Positions 1,547 through 6,393 of a DNA stretch of 36,373 nt are shown piece by piece (position 1 is the first letter of the stretch; the number at the start of each line of letters is the position of its first letter). The notes below the pieces were generated by a model, which saw only the letters and a list, made by a program, of their open reading frames with translations, ran no database searches and was not told the DNA's origin. The stretch is from a virus, in the UHGV virus genome UHGV-0172241; one strand, 5' to 3'. The translations under genes were made by a program, and so were the position numbers.

Positions 1547-2062
1547 TCAAATAGATTGGTTATTATCTGCAATTTGTTTTAACAATTTGATAATTTCATC
1601 ATTCTGTTTAATGATTTTATCATTCTGTTTAATAAGTTCATCTTTTTGGGCAATAAACACAAAATTTTGTTTTAATTGAGTATCGTAAAAGACGAATTTC
1701 GCTTGTTTATCTAGATTAGTAGTGAACGACCCAATACCATTGTACACTTTCAATAAACTTGGTCTTATGTTTTGTTTTTGATATGCATATGAGGTAACGT
1801 CGGTTGCTTCTTTTATACCTTGACCGTTTAATTTTTTGTTTGCTTTTGATTCGTATTCTTCATTATTGCTTTTAAAGTTTTCAGATTTATAAAGTTGAAT
1901 ATCAAGTTCTTTTCCTTCTTTAAAATCATTTAATATCTTTCTTTTTTCATCTGTTGTCATTTTTTTATACATGTCGATTTTTCTATTACTTAATTTGCTG
2001 AACATTTTTGTTTCTGTCAGAATTTCTTTGAAAGTTAATTTATCTCCTGCCATTTTTTTCAT
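1547..2062 (-). CDS. hypothetical protein (171 aa) in the int-cI moron position, with a C-terminal tandem repeat
   Basis: Complete ORF between the integrase and repressor, with its own terminator. The C-terminal KQNDKIIKQNDEIIK repeat is encoded by a 20-bp tandem DNA repeat (about 1597-1636). No recognisable domain. Confidence 0.55.
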   Translation of the reverse strand: MKKMAGDKLTFKEILTETKMFSKLSNRKIDMYKKMTTDEKRKILNDFKEGKELDIQLYKSENFKSNNEEYESKANKKLNGQGIKEATDVTSYAYQKQNIRPSLLKVYNGIGSFTTNLDKQAKFVFYDTQLKQNFVFIAQKDELIKQNDKIIKQNDEIIKLLKQIADNNQSI

Positions 2063-2105
2063 TTCTCCTTTGTTCGTTTTATATTAAAGCGCCACTAGGG
2101 CGCCG

Positions 2106-2720
2106 TTAATCAAAAGTTTTAACACTTGCCACAACTCTACCTACAATCTTAACTTCATCATTCTTACCATACACTTGAGGATAATGATTAGGATTATTTG
2201 ATTCAGGAATTAATATAATTTGGTCGCCGTTGTATCTGATACGTTTCACGGTACCGTTATAGCCATTTATCATTACTACGCCTAATTGACCATTCTCAAC
2301 GATGGAATCTTTTTCTATAACTACTACATCGCCCTCATCAAAAATTTTATTCATGCTATCCCCAGACACGCGTAAACCGAACTCCTCTTTACTGTCACTC
2401 AATTTCTCTTTAGAGAAGTATATGTAATCAATTAAGTTTTCTTCACTATAGATAGGTAAGCCTGCAGATATTTTTGAAACGACTGGAATCTTTTTGACTG
2501 GTAGGGTTTCTAGTTTAGGTTGTTCTTCTTCTATTCCCATAATATATGACGGAGATACTCTCAATGCTTTTGCTAATTTTACAATTTTATCTCTTTTCAT
2601 ATTTTCTATATCGCCAGTTTCCCATTTTCTCACAGTTGATTTTCCAACACCTACTAAATCTCCAACTTGTTCAAGAGTTAAATTCAATTCTTTACGTCTA
2701 CTTTTAATGTCGGGTTTCAT
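2106..2720 (-). CDS. cI: CI-like repressor (XRE helix-turn-helix plus LexA/S24 peptidase domain)
   Basis: The N-terminal LTLEQVGDLVGVGKSTVRKWETG segment is an XRE HTH. The C-terminal region has the VSGDSM...K pattern of S24 autopeptidase (Ser/Lys dyad). It is divergent from cro. Confidence 0.9.
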   Translation of the reverse strand: MKPDIKSRRKELNLTLEQVGDLVGVGKSTVRKWETGDIENMKRDKIVKLAKALRVSPSYIMGIEEEQPKLETLPVKKIPVVSKISAGLPIYSEENLIDYIYFSKEKLSDSKEEFGLRVSGDSMNKIFDEGDVVVIEKDSIVENGQLGVVMINGYNGTVKRIRYNGDQIILIPESNNPNHYPQVYGKNDEVKIVGRVVASVKTFD

Positions 2721-2891
2721 GTTAAATTTCCTCCTAATCGGTATGTACTAAATATAGCACTTAAGTATCTTAAAAGCAACACTTATATAGGAAATAAAAA
2801 TAAAAATGTATTTTTAGACACTTTTGTGTTGACTCAATGATTTATAGCGTGTATTATTAAAGTATCCTAAAAGACACGGAGGTGTTAAATA
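2721..2891. promoter_or_regulatory. divergent cI/cro promoter-operator region
   Basis: For cro: -35 TTGACT (2829-2834), 17-nt spacer, -10 TATTAT (2852-2857), then RBS GGAGGTG. AAGTATCYTAAAAG(C)ACAC-like direct repeats occur at about 2763-2784 and 2860-2877, with a third TTTAGACAC copy at about 2813-2821. Confidence 0.55.
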
Positions 2892-3119
2892 ATGAACAAA
2901 GCGAAACTTTATTCTGCTTTGGCGATGAAAGAGATGCATGTAAATGATTTTTTAAAAGAATTAAATGAGCATGGATTGAAACTTTCCAAAAGCGCCTACT
3001 ACAGCAGGATTAGAGGAGAACAGGAATTCGACATCAAAGAAATTAAAACTATAGTCAAAGTTCTCAATTTAACTAGAGACCAAATGAATGATATTTTTTT
3101 TGAAGAATTAGTGTCATAA
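2892..3119 (+). CDS. cro: Cro-like small HTH regulator
   Basis: 75-aa protein divergent from cI, with an RBS upstream. Size and position are typical of phage cro. Confidence 0.7.
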   Translation: MNKAKLYSALAMKEMHVNDFLKELNEHGLKLSKSAYYSRIRGEQEFDIKEIKTIVKVLNLTRDQMNDIFFEELVS

Positions 3120-3142
3120 AAGACACTTAATAGGAGGACACT

Positions 3143-3304
3143 ATGGAACAGATATCTAGCTATAAAATTTATGTAGAAGAAAATGAATTTAACGCATATG
3201 TAATATATGCAAAAAGTATGGAAGAAGTTTGTGGATTAATTAAAAAAATAGATAGATTTACAGAAATTAAAATAAGCCCCTCAATAAAGAAGGGCGTGAA
3301 ATAA
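3143..3304 (+). CDS. small hypothetical protein (53 aa)
   Basis: ATG preceded by TAGGAGGA RBS. Hand-translated: MEQISSYKIYVEENEFNAYVIYAKSMEEVCGLIKKIDRFTEIKISPSIKKGVK. Confidence 0.4.
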   Translation: MEQISSYKIYVEENEFNAYVIYAKSMEEVCGLIKKIDRFTEIKISPSIKKGVK

Positions 3305-3309
3305 AAAAA

Positions 3310-3573
3310 CTAAAGGAAATCTTTTAAGTGTTTAGAATCACATATGACATTTTTCCATGCGGCTTCGCCAGTCAACGTAGCTACAAACAGGCTGTCATCA
3401 TTATCAACAAAGAGTTTTAGTTCATCTCTGATTTCTTTTGAGCTGAATACTGAGTTAACAAACCAAACAGATTTATTGATTTTTGCAGCATTAGGATAAT
3501 CCTCTATTCTATTTATCAACTTAGGATAATCCTTATGGTCATTTAAGTCATATGAAATGATATAGCTTTTCAT
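3310..3573 (-). CDS. hypothetical protein (87 aa), antisense to the early lytic operon
   Basis: Has its own RBS AAGGAGGTG and a TATAAT element on the minus strand (3595-3610). It is convergent with cro and the 53-aa ORF, with only a 5-nt gap. Confidence 0.6.
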   Translation of the reverse strand: MKSYIISYDLNDHKDYPKLINRIEDYPNAAKINKSVWFVNSVFSSKEIRDELKLFVDNDDSLFVATLTGEAAWKNVICDSKHLKDFL

Positions 3574-3630
3574 TGTTACTCACCTCCTTAGGTTGATAAC
3601 AACATTATACACGAAAGGAGCATAAACATT

Positions 3631-4380
3631 ATGCAAGCATTACAAACAAAATCAAACATCGGAGAAATGTTCAACATACAAGAAAAAGAAAATGGAGAAA
3701 TCGCAATCAGCGGTCGTGAGCTTCATCAAGCTTTAGAAGTTTCAACTAGGTACGATAAGTGGTTCGAAAGAATGACGGAGTATGGTTTTGAAAACGGGAT
3801 AGATTTTATTTCGCAAGTTGAAAAAGTACACGGTCAAAAAAGGGCGCGTACTTATGAACAAATTAATCATATTCTCACATTAGACACTGCAAAAGAAATC
3901 GCAATGATTCAACGTAGTGAACCAGGTAAACGTGCAAGACAATACTTCATTCAAGTAGAGAAAGCATGGAACAGTCCAGAAATGATTATGAAACGTGCAT
4001 TGAAGATGGCTAATAACACAATCAACCAACTGGAAACACAAATTGAGAAAGACAAACCTAAAGTATTGTTTGCTGACGCAGTAGCAACAACTAAAACTTC
4101 TATTTTGGTAGGGGAATTAGCAAAAATCATTAAACAAAATGGTGTCAATATAGGACAACGAAGACTGTTTAAGTGGTTACGACAAAATGGTTTTTTAATA
4201 AAACGTCAAGGCGTCGACTATAACATGCCAACACAATACTCAATGGAACGAGAATTATTTGAAATCAAAGAAACGTCAATTACTCATTCAGACGGTCATA
4301 CATCAATTAGTAAGACCCCTAAAGTAACAGGTAAAGGGCAACAATACTTTATTAACAAATTTTTAACAAATGAACTATAA
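3631..4380 (+). CDS. ant: phage antirepressor (Bro-N/KilA-C type)
   Basis: The N-terminal ...ISGRELHQALEV..YDKWFERM region resembles AntA/Bro-N antirepressor domains common in staphylococcal phages. RBS GAAAGGAG upstream. Confidence 0.8.
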   Translation: MQALQTKSNIGEMFNIQEKENGEIAISGRELHQALEVSTRYDKWFERMTEYGFENGIDFISQVEKVHGQKRARTYEQINHILTLDTAKEIAMIQRSEPGKRARQYFIQVEKAWNSPEMIMKRALKMANNTINQLETQIEKDKPKVLFADAVATTKTSILVGELAKIIKQNGVNIGQRRLFKWLRQNGFLIKRQGVDYNMPTQYSMERELFEIKETSITHSDGHTSISKTPKVTGKGQQYFINKFLTNEL

Positions 4381-4417
4381 CCCACAATCGAACAAACAAC
4401 TTAAAGGAGTGAATGAA

Positions 4418-4561
4418 ATGAACAAGCTATACAAAACAACCCTCCTCATCACAATGGCAGTTGTGACGTGGAAGGTTATGAAAATCGAGCAGCAAATAAA
4501 AAATAATCTAAATGAATTTACAGCTACTATTCGAACTGATGATTTAAAGCGTAATCAGTAA
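4418..4561 (+). CDS. small hypothetical protein (about 47 aa from the internal ATG)
   Basis: RBS AAAGGAGTG upstream of the ATG at about 4418. The 3' end overlaps the convergent minus-strand gene. Confidence 0.4.
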   Translation: MNKLYKTTLLITMAVVTWKVMKIEQQIKNNLNEFTATIRTDDLKRNQ

Positions 4562-4704
4562 TTACTTTTAAAGCTTGCAAATATTCATTTTTGAAATATT
4601 CAACTCTATCTTCAGAGTTATCAAATTTCTTTTCATCAACCTTCAAAGTTTGAATATATGCTTTAGCAAACTCATTAGGTCGAATGGAAACCTCTGTTCT
4701 ATCC
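4527..4704 (-). CDS. small hypothetical protein (about 59 aa), antisense, GTG start
   Basis: Minus-strand RBS AAAGGGGGTG, then GTG about 5 nt later. It is preceded by the same TATAATGTTGTTATC element as gene 3310..3573. Confidence 0.45.
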
Positions 4705-4843
4705 ACAATACCACCCCCTTTCACAAAGGGATAACAACATTATATCAGAAAGGAACTAATAAATTGCTAGCACTACTGATTATCGTATTCATCACATGCG
4801 TGACCGTACAATACAAACTTAATTAACGAAAGGGAGAGAAGTA

Positions 4844-4948
4844 ATGCCACCACATATTCAACAAATGTTATTCGATTTCGCTCTTGAGCGAGGATATATA
4901 CAAAAAATTATAAAAATGGAGCAAAAACATGAGTCAAGAAATGATTGA
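4844..4948 (+). CDS. small ORF (34 aa)
   Basis: RBS GAAAGGGAGAG, then ATG. Typical early-region micro-ORF. Hand-derived coordinates. Confidence 0.3.
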   Translation: MPPHIQQMLFDFALERGYIQKIIKMEQKHESRND

Positions 4949-5015
4949 TTACTGGGCCACTTTTATGTATGAACGCGTTGGTAAAAAAATACTAGAAAAG
5001 GAAGGATTGAAATGA
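4929..5015 (+). CDS. small ORF (28 aa)
   Basis: Overlaps its neighbours with coupled starts. Hand-derived. Confidence 0.25.
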   Translation: MSQEMIDYWATFMYERVGKKILEKEGLK

Positions 5016-5191
5016 AAAGTCTAACAATCGCATTAATCACATTCGTACTTATTTCAATTATAACAATGGTCATTTTTGAAATTTACTTTACGACAGGATT
5101 AGTCGTAAGCGCAGCAACAGCAATAATAGCTTACTGGTTTTATAGCAGACATTTTTTTAATAAAAAAACTGCTACTTGCGCCAACAAGTAA
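5012..5191 (+). CDS. small membrane protein (59 aa, two predicted TM segments)
   Basis: RBS AAGGAAGGA, then an ATGA overlap. Hydrophobic sequence MKSLTIALITFVLISIITMVIF... Confidence 0.45.
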   Translation: MKSLTIALITFVLISIITMVIFEIYFTTGLVVSAATAIIAYWFYSRHFFNKKTATCANK

Positions 5192-5259
5192 CAGTAAAAG
5201 AAAAACATTTAAGAAATACAACTAACTTAAATATACGAAAAGAAACGGAGGTCGTCAAG

Positions 5260-5745
5260 TTGAGTAATTTATTCGAGTTATCAACAAATTATCAACAAAT
5301 TTATAACCTAATTTCTGAACAAGAAAACGAACTAATTTTAAAAGATACATTAGCGAGCATTAACGACGCTTTAGAAAATAAAGCGGACAGTTATGTTGCC
5401 ATTATCAAATCATTAGAAGCAGACAATAAAGCAATCGATGAAGAAATTAAACGTTTGAGACAGCGTAAATCTTCAAACGAAAACGGTATTAAACGATTAA
5501 AAGAAAGCTTACAACTGGCTATGGAAGAAACAGGCAAAGAGAAATTCAAAACATCGTTGAATAGCTACAGCATAGCTAAGAACTCACCAAGTTTAGATGT
5601 GCAAGATGAAAGTTTAATTCCGAAACAATATTACGTAGAGCAAAAACCTAAACTAAACAAAACAGAATTGCTAAAAGCTGTCAAAGACGGCCTTGAAATA
5701 AAAGGTGTCGAATTAAAACAAAACAGAAGTTTGAGGGTGCGATAA
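5260..5745 (+). CDS. siphovirus Gp157-like protein (TTG start)
   Basis: RBS AACGGAGG 8 nt upstream of TTG at 5260. A coiled-coil protein placed before the recombinase gene, as in Gp157-family loci. The ORF track extends the frame back to 5176 without an RBS. Confidence 0.5.
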   Translation: MSNLFELSTNYQQIYNLISEQENELILKDTLASINDALENKADSYVAIIKSLEADNKAIDEEIKRLRQRKSSNENGIKRLKESLQLAMEETGKEKFKTSLNSYSIAKNSPSLDVQDESLIPKQYYVEQKPKLNKTELLKAVKDGLEIKGVELKQNRSLRVR

Positions 5746-6393
5746 ATGACTGAACAACTTAATTTATACCAAAAAATAGCAGACGTTAAAGCCAATATTG
5801 ACGGATTTACCAAAGATACAAAAGGTTACAACTACTCATATGTTAGTGGCTCTCAAGTGCTACACAGAATTAGGAACAAGATGATTGAACATAATTTGTT
5901 GCTTGTACCTTACACAGAAAATGAAGAGATAACTGAAACCAAGAACGCAAAAGGTAAGACAGAACACATTGTTAAATTAAAACTAACTTATAAATGGATT
6001 AACGCAGACAATCCTCAAGAAGTGTTAGAAGTACCATTTTTCGCAGTAGGCCAACAAGATGATGTATCAAAGGCACATGGAACAGCACTAACATACGCAG
6101 AACGTTATTTCTTAATGAAATTCTTCAACATTCCAACTGATGAAGACGACGCAGACGCAAAACAAAAACAAGAAAAGTACAACAAAGCTAGTAGCAACAC
6201 AATAGGTGTTTTAAAACAAGAAGTATATCAATTTGTCACTTTAATGAAGTCTCTAGGAAAAGAAGTCACACACCAACAAGCTGAAAAAACTTTCGGAATA
6301 CAAGAATATGCGTCTATGACAGAACAACAAGCAGCAAACACAATTAATAAAATTCAAACTATGGCTAAAAAATATAAGGAGAGTGAACAATGA
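5746..6393 (+). CDS. ERF-family single-strand annealing protein (recombinase)
   Basis: The ...GTALTYAERYFLMKFFNIPTDEDDADA... segment is characteristic of the ERF superfamily. It lies immediately upstream of SSB. Confidence 0.8.
   Translation: MTEQLNLYQKIADVKANIDGFTKDTKGYNYSYVSGSQVLHRIRNKMIEHNLLLVPYTENEEITETKNAKGKTEHIVKLKLTYKWINADNPQEVLEVPFFAVGQQDDVSKAHGTALTYAERYFLMKFFNIPTDEDDADAKQKQEKYNKASSNTIGVLKQEVYQFVTLMKSLGKEVTHQQAEKTFGIQEYASMTEQQAANTINKIQTMAKKYKESEQ

Follow-up and report, generated by a model that had tools for sequence, protein, structure and literature searches.

The stretch of DNA analyzed here, virus genome UHGV-0172241 (36,373 nucleotides [nt] at 35% GC; its whole length is called the window below), belongs to a staphylococcal temperate siphovirus or prophage. 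Its plus strand carries a long block that runs from a cro-like gene through an antirepressor gene to recombination, replication, and structural genes, and inside this rightward block only two credible minus-strand genes are found, at 3310-3573 (gene 1) and 4527-4706 (gene 2). As in a noncontiguous operon, both leftward genes are nested antisense, being flanked by the co-oriented plus-strand block that starts at 2892. Our subject is the short intergenic cassette that stands immediately before each of them. A preliminary description of the locus had proposed that one repeated module precedes both minus-strand genes and forms a shared regulatory cassette for genes opposing the early lytic operon. 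Both points hold: the 15-mer GATAACAACATTATA occurs exactly at 3595-3609 and 4730-4744, with no further exact copy in the window, and each copy combines a perfect -10 hexamer and a strong Shine-Dalgarno (SD) sequence for the leftward gene with a ribosome-binding site (RBS) for the divergent gene on its plus side. It is probable, in our judgment, that each copy is a one-directional sigma-A-type promoter which, without a -35 element and together with its SD, drives an antisense accessory gene in the lytic operon. We favor this reading because of the anatomy of the two copies, the distribution of the cassette, its selective conservation, loci collected independently of the motif, the diversity of the cargo, the expression of homologues, and the annotation of phage B236.

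In both copies, the 15-mer is followed by three variable bases and then by GAAAGGA (3613-3619 and 4748-4754), and the whole module, GATAACAACATTATA-N3-GAAAGGA (N, any base), spans 3595-3619 and 4730-4754; with a repeat finder, the two copies align over 36 nt (78% identity). The window has 21 exact 15-mer pairs, compared with a mean of 3.6 in first-order Markov simulations, so a lone pair would be unremarkable, whereas none of 300 simulated windows (0 of 300) produced a composite 15+N3+7 pair. In minus-strand orientation, copy 1 reads cgtg-TATAAT-GTT-GTTATC-AACCT-AAGGAGGTG-agtaaca-ATG, with the ATG at 3573, and copy 2 reads cTGa-TATAAT-GTT-GTTATC-CCTTTGTG-AAAGGGGGTGG-tatt-GTG, with the GTG at 4706. 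TATAAT sits 14-17 nt upstream of the strong SD and start codon of each antisense gene, 5-8 nt lie between GTTATC and the strong SD in both copies, and the SD sequences are complementary to the 3' end of 16S rRNA over up to 9-13 bases. On the other side, the antirepressor SD directly abuts the -10 of the leftward promoter, and the start codons of the divergent genes are 57 nt apart at both copies, taking the plus-strand TTG at 4764 as the start at copy 2. The preliminary description had thus characterized the elements correctly, but its positions need shifting to those of the module given here, to GTG 4706 as the start of gene 2, and to 4764-4826 for a plus-strand micro-open reading frame (micro-ORF). 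The start of gene 2 is most likely this GTG and not 4704, as judged from the sequence; the program-called ORF begins at 4724, within the SD. The features are collected in Table 1.

Table 1. Positions of the cassette copies and of the genes and signals around them (a..b written from high to low follows the minus strand)
Feature	Position	Strand	Basis or remark
Copy 1 core	3595..3609	minus	TATAAT 3609..3604, GTT spacer, GTTATC 3600..3595
SD AAGGAGGTG of leftward gene 1	3581..3589	minus	sequence
SD GAAAGGAG of antirepressor gene	3613..3620	plus	10 nt before ATG 3631
Copy 2 core	4730..4747	minus	extended -10 TGaTATAAT 4747..4739, GTT, GTTATC 4735..4730
SD AAAGGGGGTGG of leftward gene 2	4721..4711	minus	sequence; within leader 4711..4732
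SD-like GAAAGGAA, copy 2	4748..4755	plus	sequence
Leftward cargo gene 1, 87 amino acids (aa), predicted Cas2 fold	3310..3573	minus	ORF, Pfam, PADLOC, AlphaFold2, Foldseek
Terminator-like hairpin and T-rich tail	3276..3295	minus only	scan; predicted to end gene 1 transcript
Leftward cargo gene 2, 59 aa, GTG start	4527..4706	minus	ORF; weak match phrog_35257
TTG-initiated 20-aa hydrophobic micro-ORF MLALLIIVFITCVTVQYKLN	4764..4826	plus	homologous ORFs in phage EW and contigs
Micro-ORF family, 20-25 aa, hydrophobic	window 4764-4826 (+); L144 681-758; L145-L151		
Integrase	100-1482	minus	lysogeny genes
ORF	1547-2062	minus	lysogeny genes
CI-like repressor, helix-turn-helix and S24-peptidase	2106-2720	minus	lysogeny genes
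cro-like gene	2892-3119	plus	first gene of long rightward block
AntA/KilAC antirepressor	3631-4380	plus	Pfam ANT/AntA
17-nt motif AGTATCCTAAAAGACAC, three copies	2764-2780, 2861-2877, 3110-3126		repeat search; two in cI-cro intergenic region

The -10 hexamer of a sigma-A promoter is present as a perfect TATAAT on the minus strand of both copies (3609..3604 and 4744..4739), and its position is kept across relatives. Copy 2 has the extended form TGaTATAAT, while copy 1 reads CGTGTATAAT, with the TG one base off register; relatives show both forms. Placed by spacing alone, 7 nt after the -10, the predicted transcription starts are the A at 3597 for copy 1 and the A at 4732 for copy 2, and the leader would be ~20-25 nt long if the start is this A of GTTATC.

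The cassette is widespread in staphylococcal phages. Matches to the 81-bp copy 1 junction number 426 and fall in 323 phage records, of which 322 are from Staphylococcus. An exact 15-mer scan of IMG/VR returned at least 120 loci, about 85 of them with the full cassette CAT-N9-CTCCTTTCGTG-TATAATGTTGTTATC-leader-AAGGAGGTG-ATG. The layout in these ~85 listed loci is constant: the CAT of the divergent gene, N8-10, CTCCTTTC (its SD), NNN, TATAATGTTGTTATC, leader, strong SD, and ATG. Few leader types occur among the listed loci (AACCT..., TCCTAGTGA..., CCTTTNTGA..., and GCTACTGCG...), and leader AACCTAAGGAGGTG of gene 1 is common to many different cargo genes. Up to ~49 nt are identical before at least 10 unrelated cargo genes, and the identity stops exactly at the start codon. 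Additional copies that the 15-mer search did not pick have TATAAT and (G/A/T)TTATC fixed, and their N3 spacer drifts (GTT, TTA, TTT, TTG, GAA, CCT, ATA); on these comparisons, the conserved core of the cassette is read as TATAAT-N3-NTTATC. The same core is also seen at repressor-gene promoters that have a canonical -35. A literature text search for the 15-mer in either orientation did not find it in any paper.

A motif-independent set of loci was retrieved via the Cas2-like protein of gene 1. Close relatives in this set retain the exact 15-mer; at 57-76% protein identity (L131-L137), the -10 is in the same position and usually TGn-extended, though TTATC and the leader have changed. The preliminary description had named absence of the motif from phages that retain the genes as evidence against it, and this is found in part for the exact 15-mer but not for the promoter element, whose -10 persists in the diverged homologues. 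Outside Staphylococcus, a Macrococcoides canis prophage (CP046363, L141 2940-3010) carries CAT-N8-CTCCTTTC-TGaTATAAT-TTT-CTTAATC...AAAGGGGGTG before its Cas2-like gene.

Downstream of the cassette, the listed IMG/VR loci encode at least 62 distinct proteins, which group into 26-27 clusters. Apart from two clusters of repressor genes, these are small accessory proteins, many without annotation, and the named ones include Abi_alpha/PADLOC PDC-S47, the 80alpha gp11 family, DUF2513, and DUF1508. Cargo, leader type, and both neighbors recombine freely, and the same cargo is seen with different leaders and neighbors. The slot before the antirepressor gene holds at least 10 cargo clusters, and here the units are present or absent between conserved neighbors, as expected of morons. 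Cargo clusters combine with several neighbors; partner calling took the longest nearby ORF, often the antirepressor, and since it skipped small ORFs, it is a weak test of a pairing of cargo with a small convergent inhibitor (as in tha/ith), which may still hold for individual pairs. The two copies of the window have different leader types, and the bases ahead of the -10 are not the same either. Since each subtype occurs in other phages, we regard them as two members of a family and not as an in situ duplication, contrary to what had been proposed.

In 80alpha and phiNM1, antisense genes behind homologous cassettes are transcribed or translated in lysogens, in line with the earlier proposal of a promoter/RBS function. 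In 80alpha, the antisense genes orf11 and orf19 carry cassette variants (TATAATTTAGTTATC and TGcTATAATTTTGTTATC, respectively), and both are antisense units with a clear switch of the direct RNA-seq profile on induction (Rostol et al. 2024, PMC11087260, Extended Data Fig. 8); they are described there as further "noncontiguous operons," a concept credited to that paper's reference 15. The third antisense gene, orf72, is without the cassette, and no negative-sense transcripts were seen for it (PMC11087260). In phiNM1, all three antisense genes of the rightward region (gp07, gp09, and gp17) carry the cassette. Proteomics of an uninfected phiNM1 lysogen detected A0EWH8, A0EWI0, and A0EWI8, the last of which (DUF4393/Abi-alpha) was the most abundant phage protein, at 42% of phage protein (bioRxiv 10.1101/2025.10.23.684294). 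In addition, the two cassette copies of phage B236 each lie directly under a promoter predicted by BPROM, annotated as P2L and P1L in its GenBank record (KP893290). These expression data concern homologous cassettes, from which we infer promoter activity of the two copies in the window by analogy.

We propose that the promoter would rest on the perfect -10 TATAAT, to which copy 2 would add the TGn extension, and that GTTATC would mark a conserved start-site region with +1 at its A, followed by a short leader with a very strong SD. The cassette would then drive a small "moron"-like accessory gene nested antisense in the rightward early lytic operon, while the other face of the ~57-bp intergenic segment would serve solely as the RBS of the divergent rightward gene, itself transcribed by presumed read-through from the cro-side early promoter. 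If they behave like their counterparts in 80alpha and phiNM1, the leftward genes would be on in the lysogen, while CI represses the early promoter; after induction, strong rightward transcription running head-on across the leftward genes would turn them down. This would be the logic of a noncontiguous operon, with transcriptional interference and overlapping RNAs. An overlap of transcripts is predicted from the geometry, as the 3' end of gene 2 overlaps the plus-strand gene at 4370-4561 tail-to-tail by 35 nt (4527-4561).

Several points weigh against a promoter at each copy. A -35 near TTGACA is absent in both (at most two of six matches at 16-18 nt spacing, read by eye) because that space holds the SD and start codon of the divergent gene, and without a recognizable -35, neither copy was listed by a consensus promoter scan. 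Copy 1, which lacks both a -35 and an in-register TG extension, should be weak by consensus rules. The literature found gives no mapped 5' end for this phage or for any other with a cassette, and the start is set from spacing. The TTATC element is frequent but not universal, and the assignment of A0EWH8, A0EWI0, and A0EWI8 to gp07, gp09, and gp17 was made via serial numbering, checked at the integrase, Tha-2, CI, and DUF4393. Moreover, much of the cassette identity could reflect recent recombination rather than selection. Taken to its end, this last point would make the block chiefly a recombination linker, a short homology patch at gene boundaries for cargo swapping in which TATAAT is incidental, an idea compatible with promoter function. 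It accounts for the stretch of ~49 nt shared by at least 10 unrelated cargo genes and ending exactly at their start codons, for the same cargo appearing with different leaders and neighbors, and for the many cargo families in the same slot. However, genes that face left in a rightward operon need their own promoter, the -10 stays in place in diverged homologues that have lost the homology patch, and homologous units are expressed in lysogens; drift of N3 while TATAAT and TTATC remain fixed is likewise unexpected for a pure homology patch. A linker alone is insufficient, because it leaves selective conservation, the persistence of the -10 in diverged homologues, and lysogen expression unexplained. 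As the chief function we consider it improbable, and we would rather assign it to the same block as a second role.

Conservation of GTTATC beyond the needs of a -10, together with the overlap of the element with the predicted start site, a position at which repressor binding would be effective, could instead point to an operator through which CI, Cro, or another phage or host regulator switches the leftward genes, and a CI/Cro operator had indeed been suggested. Yet its dyad symmetry is weak (only 4-bp arms, ATAA-N5-TTAT), it has no likeness to the 17-nt repeat present three times around cI-cro, and lysogens, which contain abundant CI, express cassette genes. The operator is unlikely, since there is no real dyad, no likeness to the 17-nt repeats, and a core that is shared by phages with unrelated repressors, and the suggestion of a CI/Cro operator is not borne out. 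Still less credit goes to a truly bidirectional promoter that would also start rightward transcription of the antirepressor gene and the micro-ORF, as the preliminary description had it. The module does lie directly upstream of plus-strand genes, and the B236 annotators predicted rightward promoters near such junctions, but the consensus scan found no plus-strand promoter consensus, and no -35/-10 pair, in or beside either copy, on which ground we reject this reading. Furthermore, a start from any plus-strand -10-like hexamer in the 15-mer would fall in or after the plus-strand SD, and the plus-strand genes stand in an uninterrupted block behind the cro promoter, the terminator at 3276-3295 being on the minus strand only. 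With no plus-strand promoter consensus, only the translation signals are bidirectional, and the plus strand of the module contributes a ribosome-binding site only. Mere chance similarity in AT-rich DNA could appeal to the excess of exact 15-mer pairs in the window, but it deserves practically no credence and is ruled out by the simulations of the composite pair, by the IMG/VR layout, and by conservation of the junction in 323 phage records; both copies also hold the same position relative to two start codons, with 57 nt between these in each case.

We return to the one-directional promoter and the leader RNA that it would produce. Should the A of GTTATC be the start, several leader classes would begin with 7-8 nt complementary to the SD region, and a hairpin would form flush with the 5' end. 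For the gene 2 leader, a 5'-terminal hairpin is predicted in which AUCCCUUU pairs with AAGGGGGU and covers the SD; this leader folds at -9.2 kcal/mol (z = -2.3), and 2 of 200 shuffles fold as well. Related leader classes give similar folds, with AUCUCCU pairing with AGGAGGU (-8.1 kcal/mol), and variation within a class lies mostly in the loop. Over the leaders, register 1-7/14-20 is paired in 93.5%, compared with 57-72% when slid. Copy 1 belongs to the commonest leader class, whose fold is weak (-3.5 kcal/mol, z = -0.4). RNAalifold over the leaders gave no common consensus structure because the classes pair in different registers, and no covariation signal was found for the leader pairing. Given the weak fold of the commonest class, the absence of a common register, and the absence of covariation, the predicted 5' anti-SD hairpin is no more than suggestive. 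Searching 2600-5400 against Rfam matched no family, the sole sub-threshold match falling on a terminator hairpin at 5142-5215. A separate predicted fold concerns the rightward read-through RNA at 3574-3633 (+), in which CCUCCU (the leftward SD in reverse complement) pairs with AGGAGG, the antirepressor SD, and leaves the 15-mer in the loop (-8.7 kcal/mol, z = -1.6). This pairing is inevitable because two divergent SDs stand 25 nt apart; as modeled, it might damp translation of the antirepressor.

A more far-reaching and rather doubtful idea is that the cassette forms a portable slot, in which the fixed +1 would create an anti-SD 5' hairpin setting mRNA stability or translation, and the ~50-bp block would act as a crossover point for exchanging lysogen-expressed cargo, some of it defense-related, among at least four genomic slots. 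No terminator was found for gene 2, and none is predicted on the minus strand between 4527 and the hairpin at 3295..3276; because of this, the cassette 2 transcript may run antisense across the whole antirepressor gene into gene 1. As a corollary of the portable-slot idea, this copy 2 transcript, meeting no terminator, may in the lysogen help to silence the antirepressor over which it lies.

Gene 1 consists of the promoter-like cassette, a single ORF, and the terminator-like hairpin, a moron layout; because the plus strand has an A-run after the hairpin, rightward read-through is expected at 3276-3295. Its product scores 23.5 bits against Pfam Cas2, for which the cut-off is 23.8, and so does not reach the gathering threshold, and it matches PADLOC Cas2b with E = 3.5e-6. 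The AlphaFold2 model (mean predicted local distance difference test [pLDDT] 82) has beta-alpha-beta-beta-alpha-beta topology; it was built from a 15-sequence alignment, which was needed because a single-sequence run was unusable (pLDDT 45). The top Foldseek matches of the model in the PDB are Cas2 structures (1zpw, 3exc, 5g4d, 2ivy, 4es3, and 4qr0; TM 0.55-0.70), followed by Cas2-like nucleases such as GhoS and BPSL1038. Sequence and profile searches of gene 1 against the PDB gave no match, and NCBIfam matched none of six small proteins. There is no cas1 beside gene 1, its neighbors being phage early genes both here and in the Macrococcoides and Enterococcus prophages, and a repeat search of 2000-6000 found no CRISPR-like array. 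Homologues, which carry the NCBI name Cas2, are lone antisense genes in prophage early regions of Staphylococcus, Mammaliicoccus, Macrococcoides, and Enterococcus. The structural model identifies the predicted gene 1 product as a lone Cas2-fold protein. For gene 2, one relative was found (80% identical, in L139), likewise behind a cassette.

On the plus-strand side of copy 2, the preliminary description had pointed to a possible 20-aa hydrophobic peptide, and this proposal has gained ground. A DNA search with 4700-4860 against phages matched the cassette part alone, but a peptide search and codon-pattern scan located a homologous ORF of 24-25 aa at the corresponding position in phage EW and in six IMG/VR contigs: MT(T/A)LLI(A/V)LNII(A/V)FITCVTLQYK(R/N)RY, with NII(A/V)FITCVTLQYK as the family core. 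In the conserved core, five codons vary synonymously only, and two change conservatively. Outside the window, the micro-ORF occurs in six distinct contexts. In five of them (EW, L145, L147-L151), its start comes 9 nt after a cassette's plus-strand SD; in the sixth, L146, it follows a plus-strand gene and has no cassette before it. The genes downstream of it differ between contexts. It is unannotated in the phage EW record, and no PHROG family matched it. From these codon and positional patterns, the micro-ORF is probably a real micro-gene. Members of the family are small hydrophobic peptide ORFs such as occur in type I toxin-antitoxin systems, but the layout does not suit such a pair, since the cassette promoter is directed away from the micro-ORF. 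As to the other half of such a pair, an antisense RNA over the micro-ORF, no minus-strand promoter-like site is predicted within it or just downstream.

Farther downstream, a leftward promoter-like site, TTGACG-17-TATATT (5258..5230, minus), is followed ~35 nt later by a 12-bp hairpin and T7 (5195..5168). This site, at 5160-5260 (-), would yield a small RNA of ~60-75 nt antisense to the end of a DUF1270-like gene, going by its sequence features. Its -10 and hairpin stems are conserved in 80alpha (L123 6085-6200), phiNM1 (L124 6083-6198), and B236, with a varying loop; the -35 is seen in 80alpha and phiNM1, and the aligned B236 stretch stops short of it. The 5160-5260 region matches 311 staphylococcal phage records. 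Upstream of the cassettes, the third copy of the 17-nt motif, at the 3' end of the cro-like gene, is palindromic (AGTGTCATAAAAGACACT); these repeats are probably the CI/Cro operators and are not related to the 15-mer. As for the phage itself, the best sequenced-phage record aligns with 14% of its first 25 kb (~80% identity), a distant relationship, and the hosts of its nearest relatives are S. epidermidis, S. capitis, other coagulase-negative staphylococci, and S. pseudintermedius.

Antisense genes in the lytic operon are where staphylococcal prophages keep lysogeny functions, for example Abi_alpha-type abortive infection and candidate defense or exclusion genes. The signature CTCCTTTC-NNN-TATAAT-N3-GTTATC-leader-AAGGAGGTG would offer a handle for finding lysogen-expressed cargo in any Staphylococcus prophage, and a search with it would also reach unannotated genes such as the micro-ORF. 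Here, it yields two new candidates, the lone Cas2-fold protein and the 59-aa protein. With respect to regulation, little is added to what is known from 80alpha and phiNM1, unless the 5' hairpin or the antisense read-through into the antirepressor is real.

Phage morons, a concept from lambdoid phages, are promoter-gene-terminator units inserted between conserved phage genes. Gene 1 resembles a moron in its promoter-like element, single ORF, and terminator, and some relatives have it while others carry different genes in its place. Classic morons, however, are usually co-oriented with their neighbors and have no common promoter sequence, and the cassette units differ from them in orientation and in their shared promoter; gene 2, in addition, has no detectable terminator. 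At the RNA level, 5'-terminal stem-loops and 5'-proximal strong SDs stabilize Firmicutes mRNAs (Bacillus aprE, ermC leaders, STAB-SD). The cassette leaders would be similar to these in that, if the start is the A of GTTATC, the predicted 5' nucleotides (AUCUCCU or AUCCCUUU) pair with the SD region, a purely predicted resemblance that is weak in the commonest leader class and has no covariation behind it.

In phage B236, P2L and P1L lie over an exact and a two-mismatch copy of the 15-mer, upstream of leftward ORF08 and ORF12; they are software predictions within an annotation, unlike the cross-phage comparison made here. PdpSau was considered for comparison and set aside, as its gene lies in the lysis/accessory region and not in the cassette slots. 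The 80alpha promoter Pith-1 (promoter of ith-1, cI operon) resembles the cassette in having TGaTATAAT ~12 nt from an SD, no obvious -35, and a nested antisense gene. It is constitutive and governed by opposing transcription, and its reporter activity is the same with and without the prophage (PMC11087260). Unlike the cassette, Pith-1 has neither GTTATC nor an anti-SD leader, and it is located in the lysogeny operon, where the logic is reversed and it is suppressed during lysogeny. The closest counterparts are 80alpha orf11 and orf19 and phiNM1 gp07, gp09, and gp17. Like the leftward genes of the window, each is a single gene opposing the early lytic operon; they share the core TATAAT-N3-NTTATC, the strong SD, and the abutting RBS of a divergent gene, and they occupy the same slots, after the antirepressor and before DUF1270 or replication genes. 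The cargo differs, the window carrying a predicted Cas2-fold protein and a 59-aa protein, and 80alpha and phiNM1 carrying gp11 and an Abi_alpha/DUF4393 protein. The papers on these two phages give the architecture and the transcripts, and the portion of their text that is searchable contains no shared sequence cassette; the Goldberg 2018 paper on phiNM1 has nothing on leftward promoters. The architecture is thus already described for 80alpha and phiNM1, and what appears to be new here, in a modest way, is the signature that about two dozen cargo families have in common, an anti-SD hairpin predicted at the 5' end, the micro-ORF family, and the lone Cas2-fold cargo.

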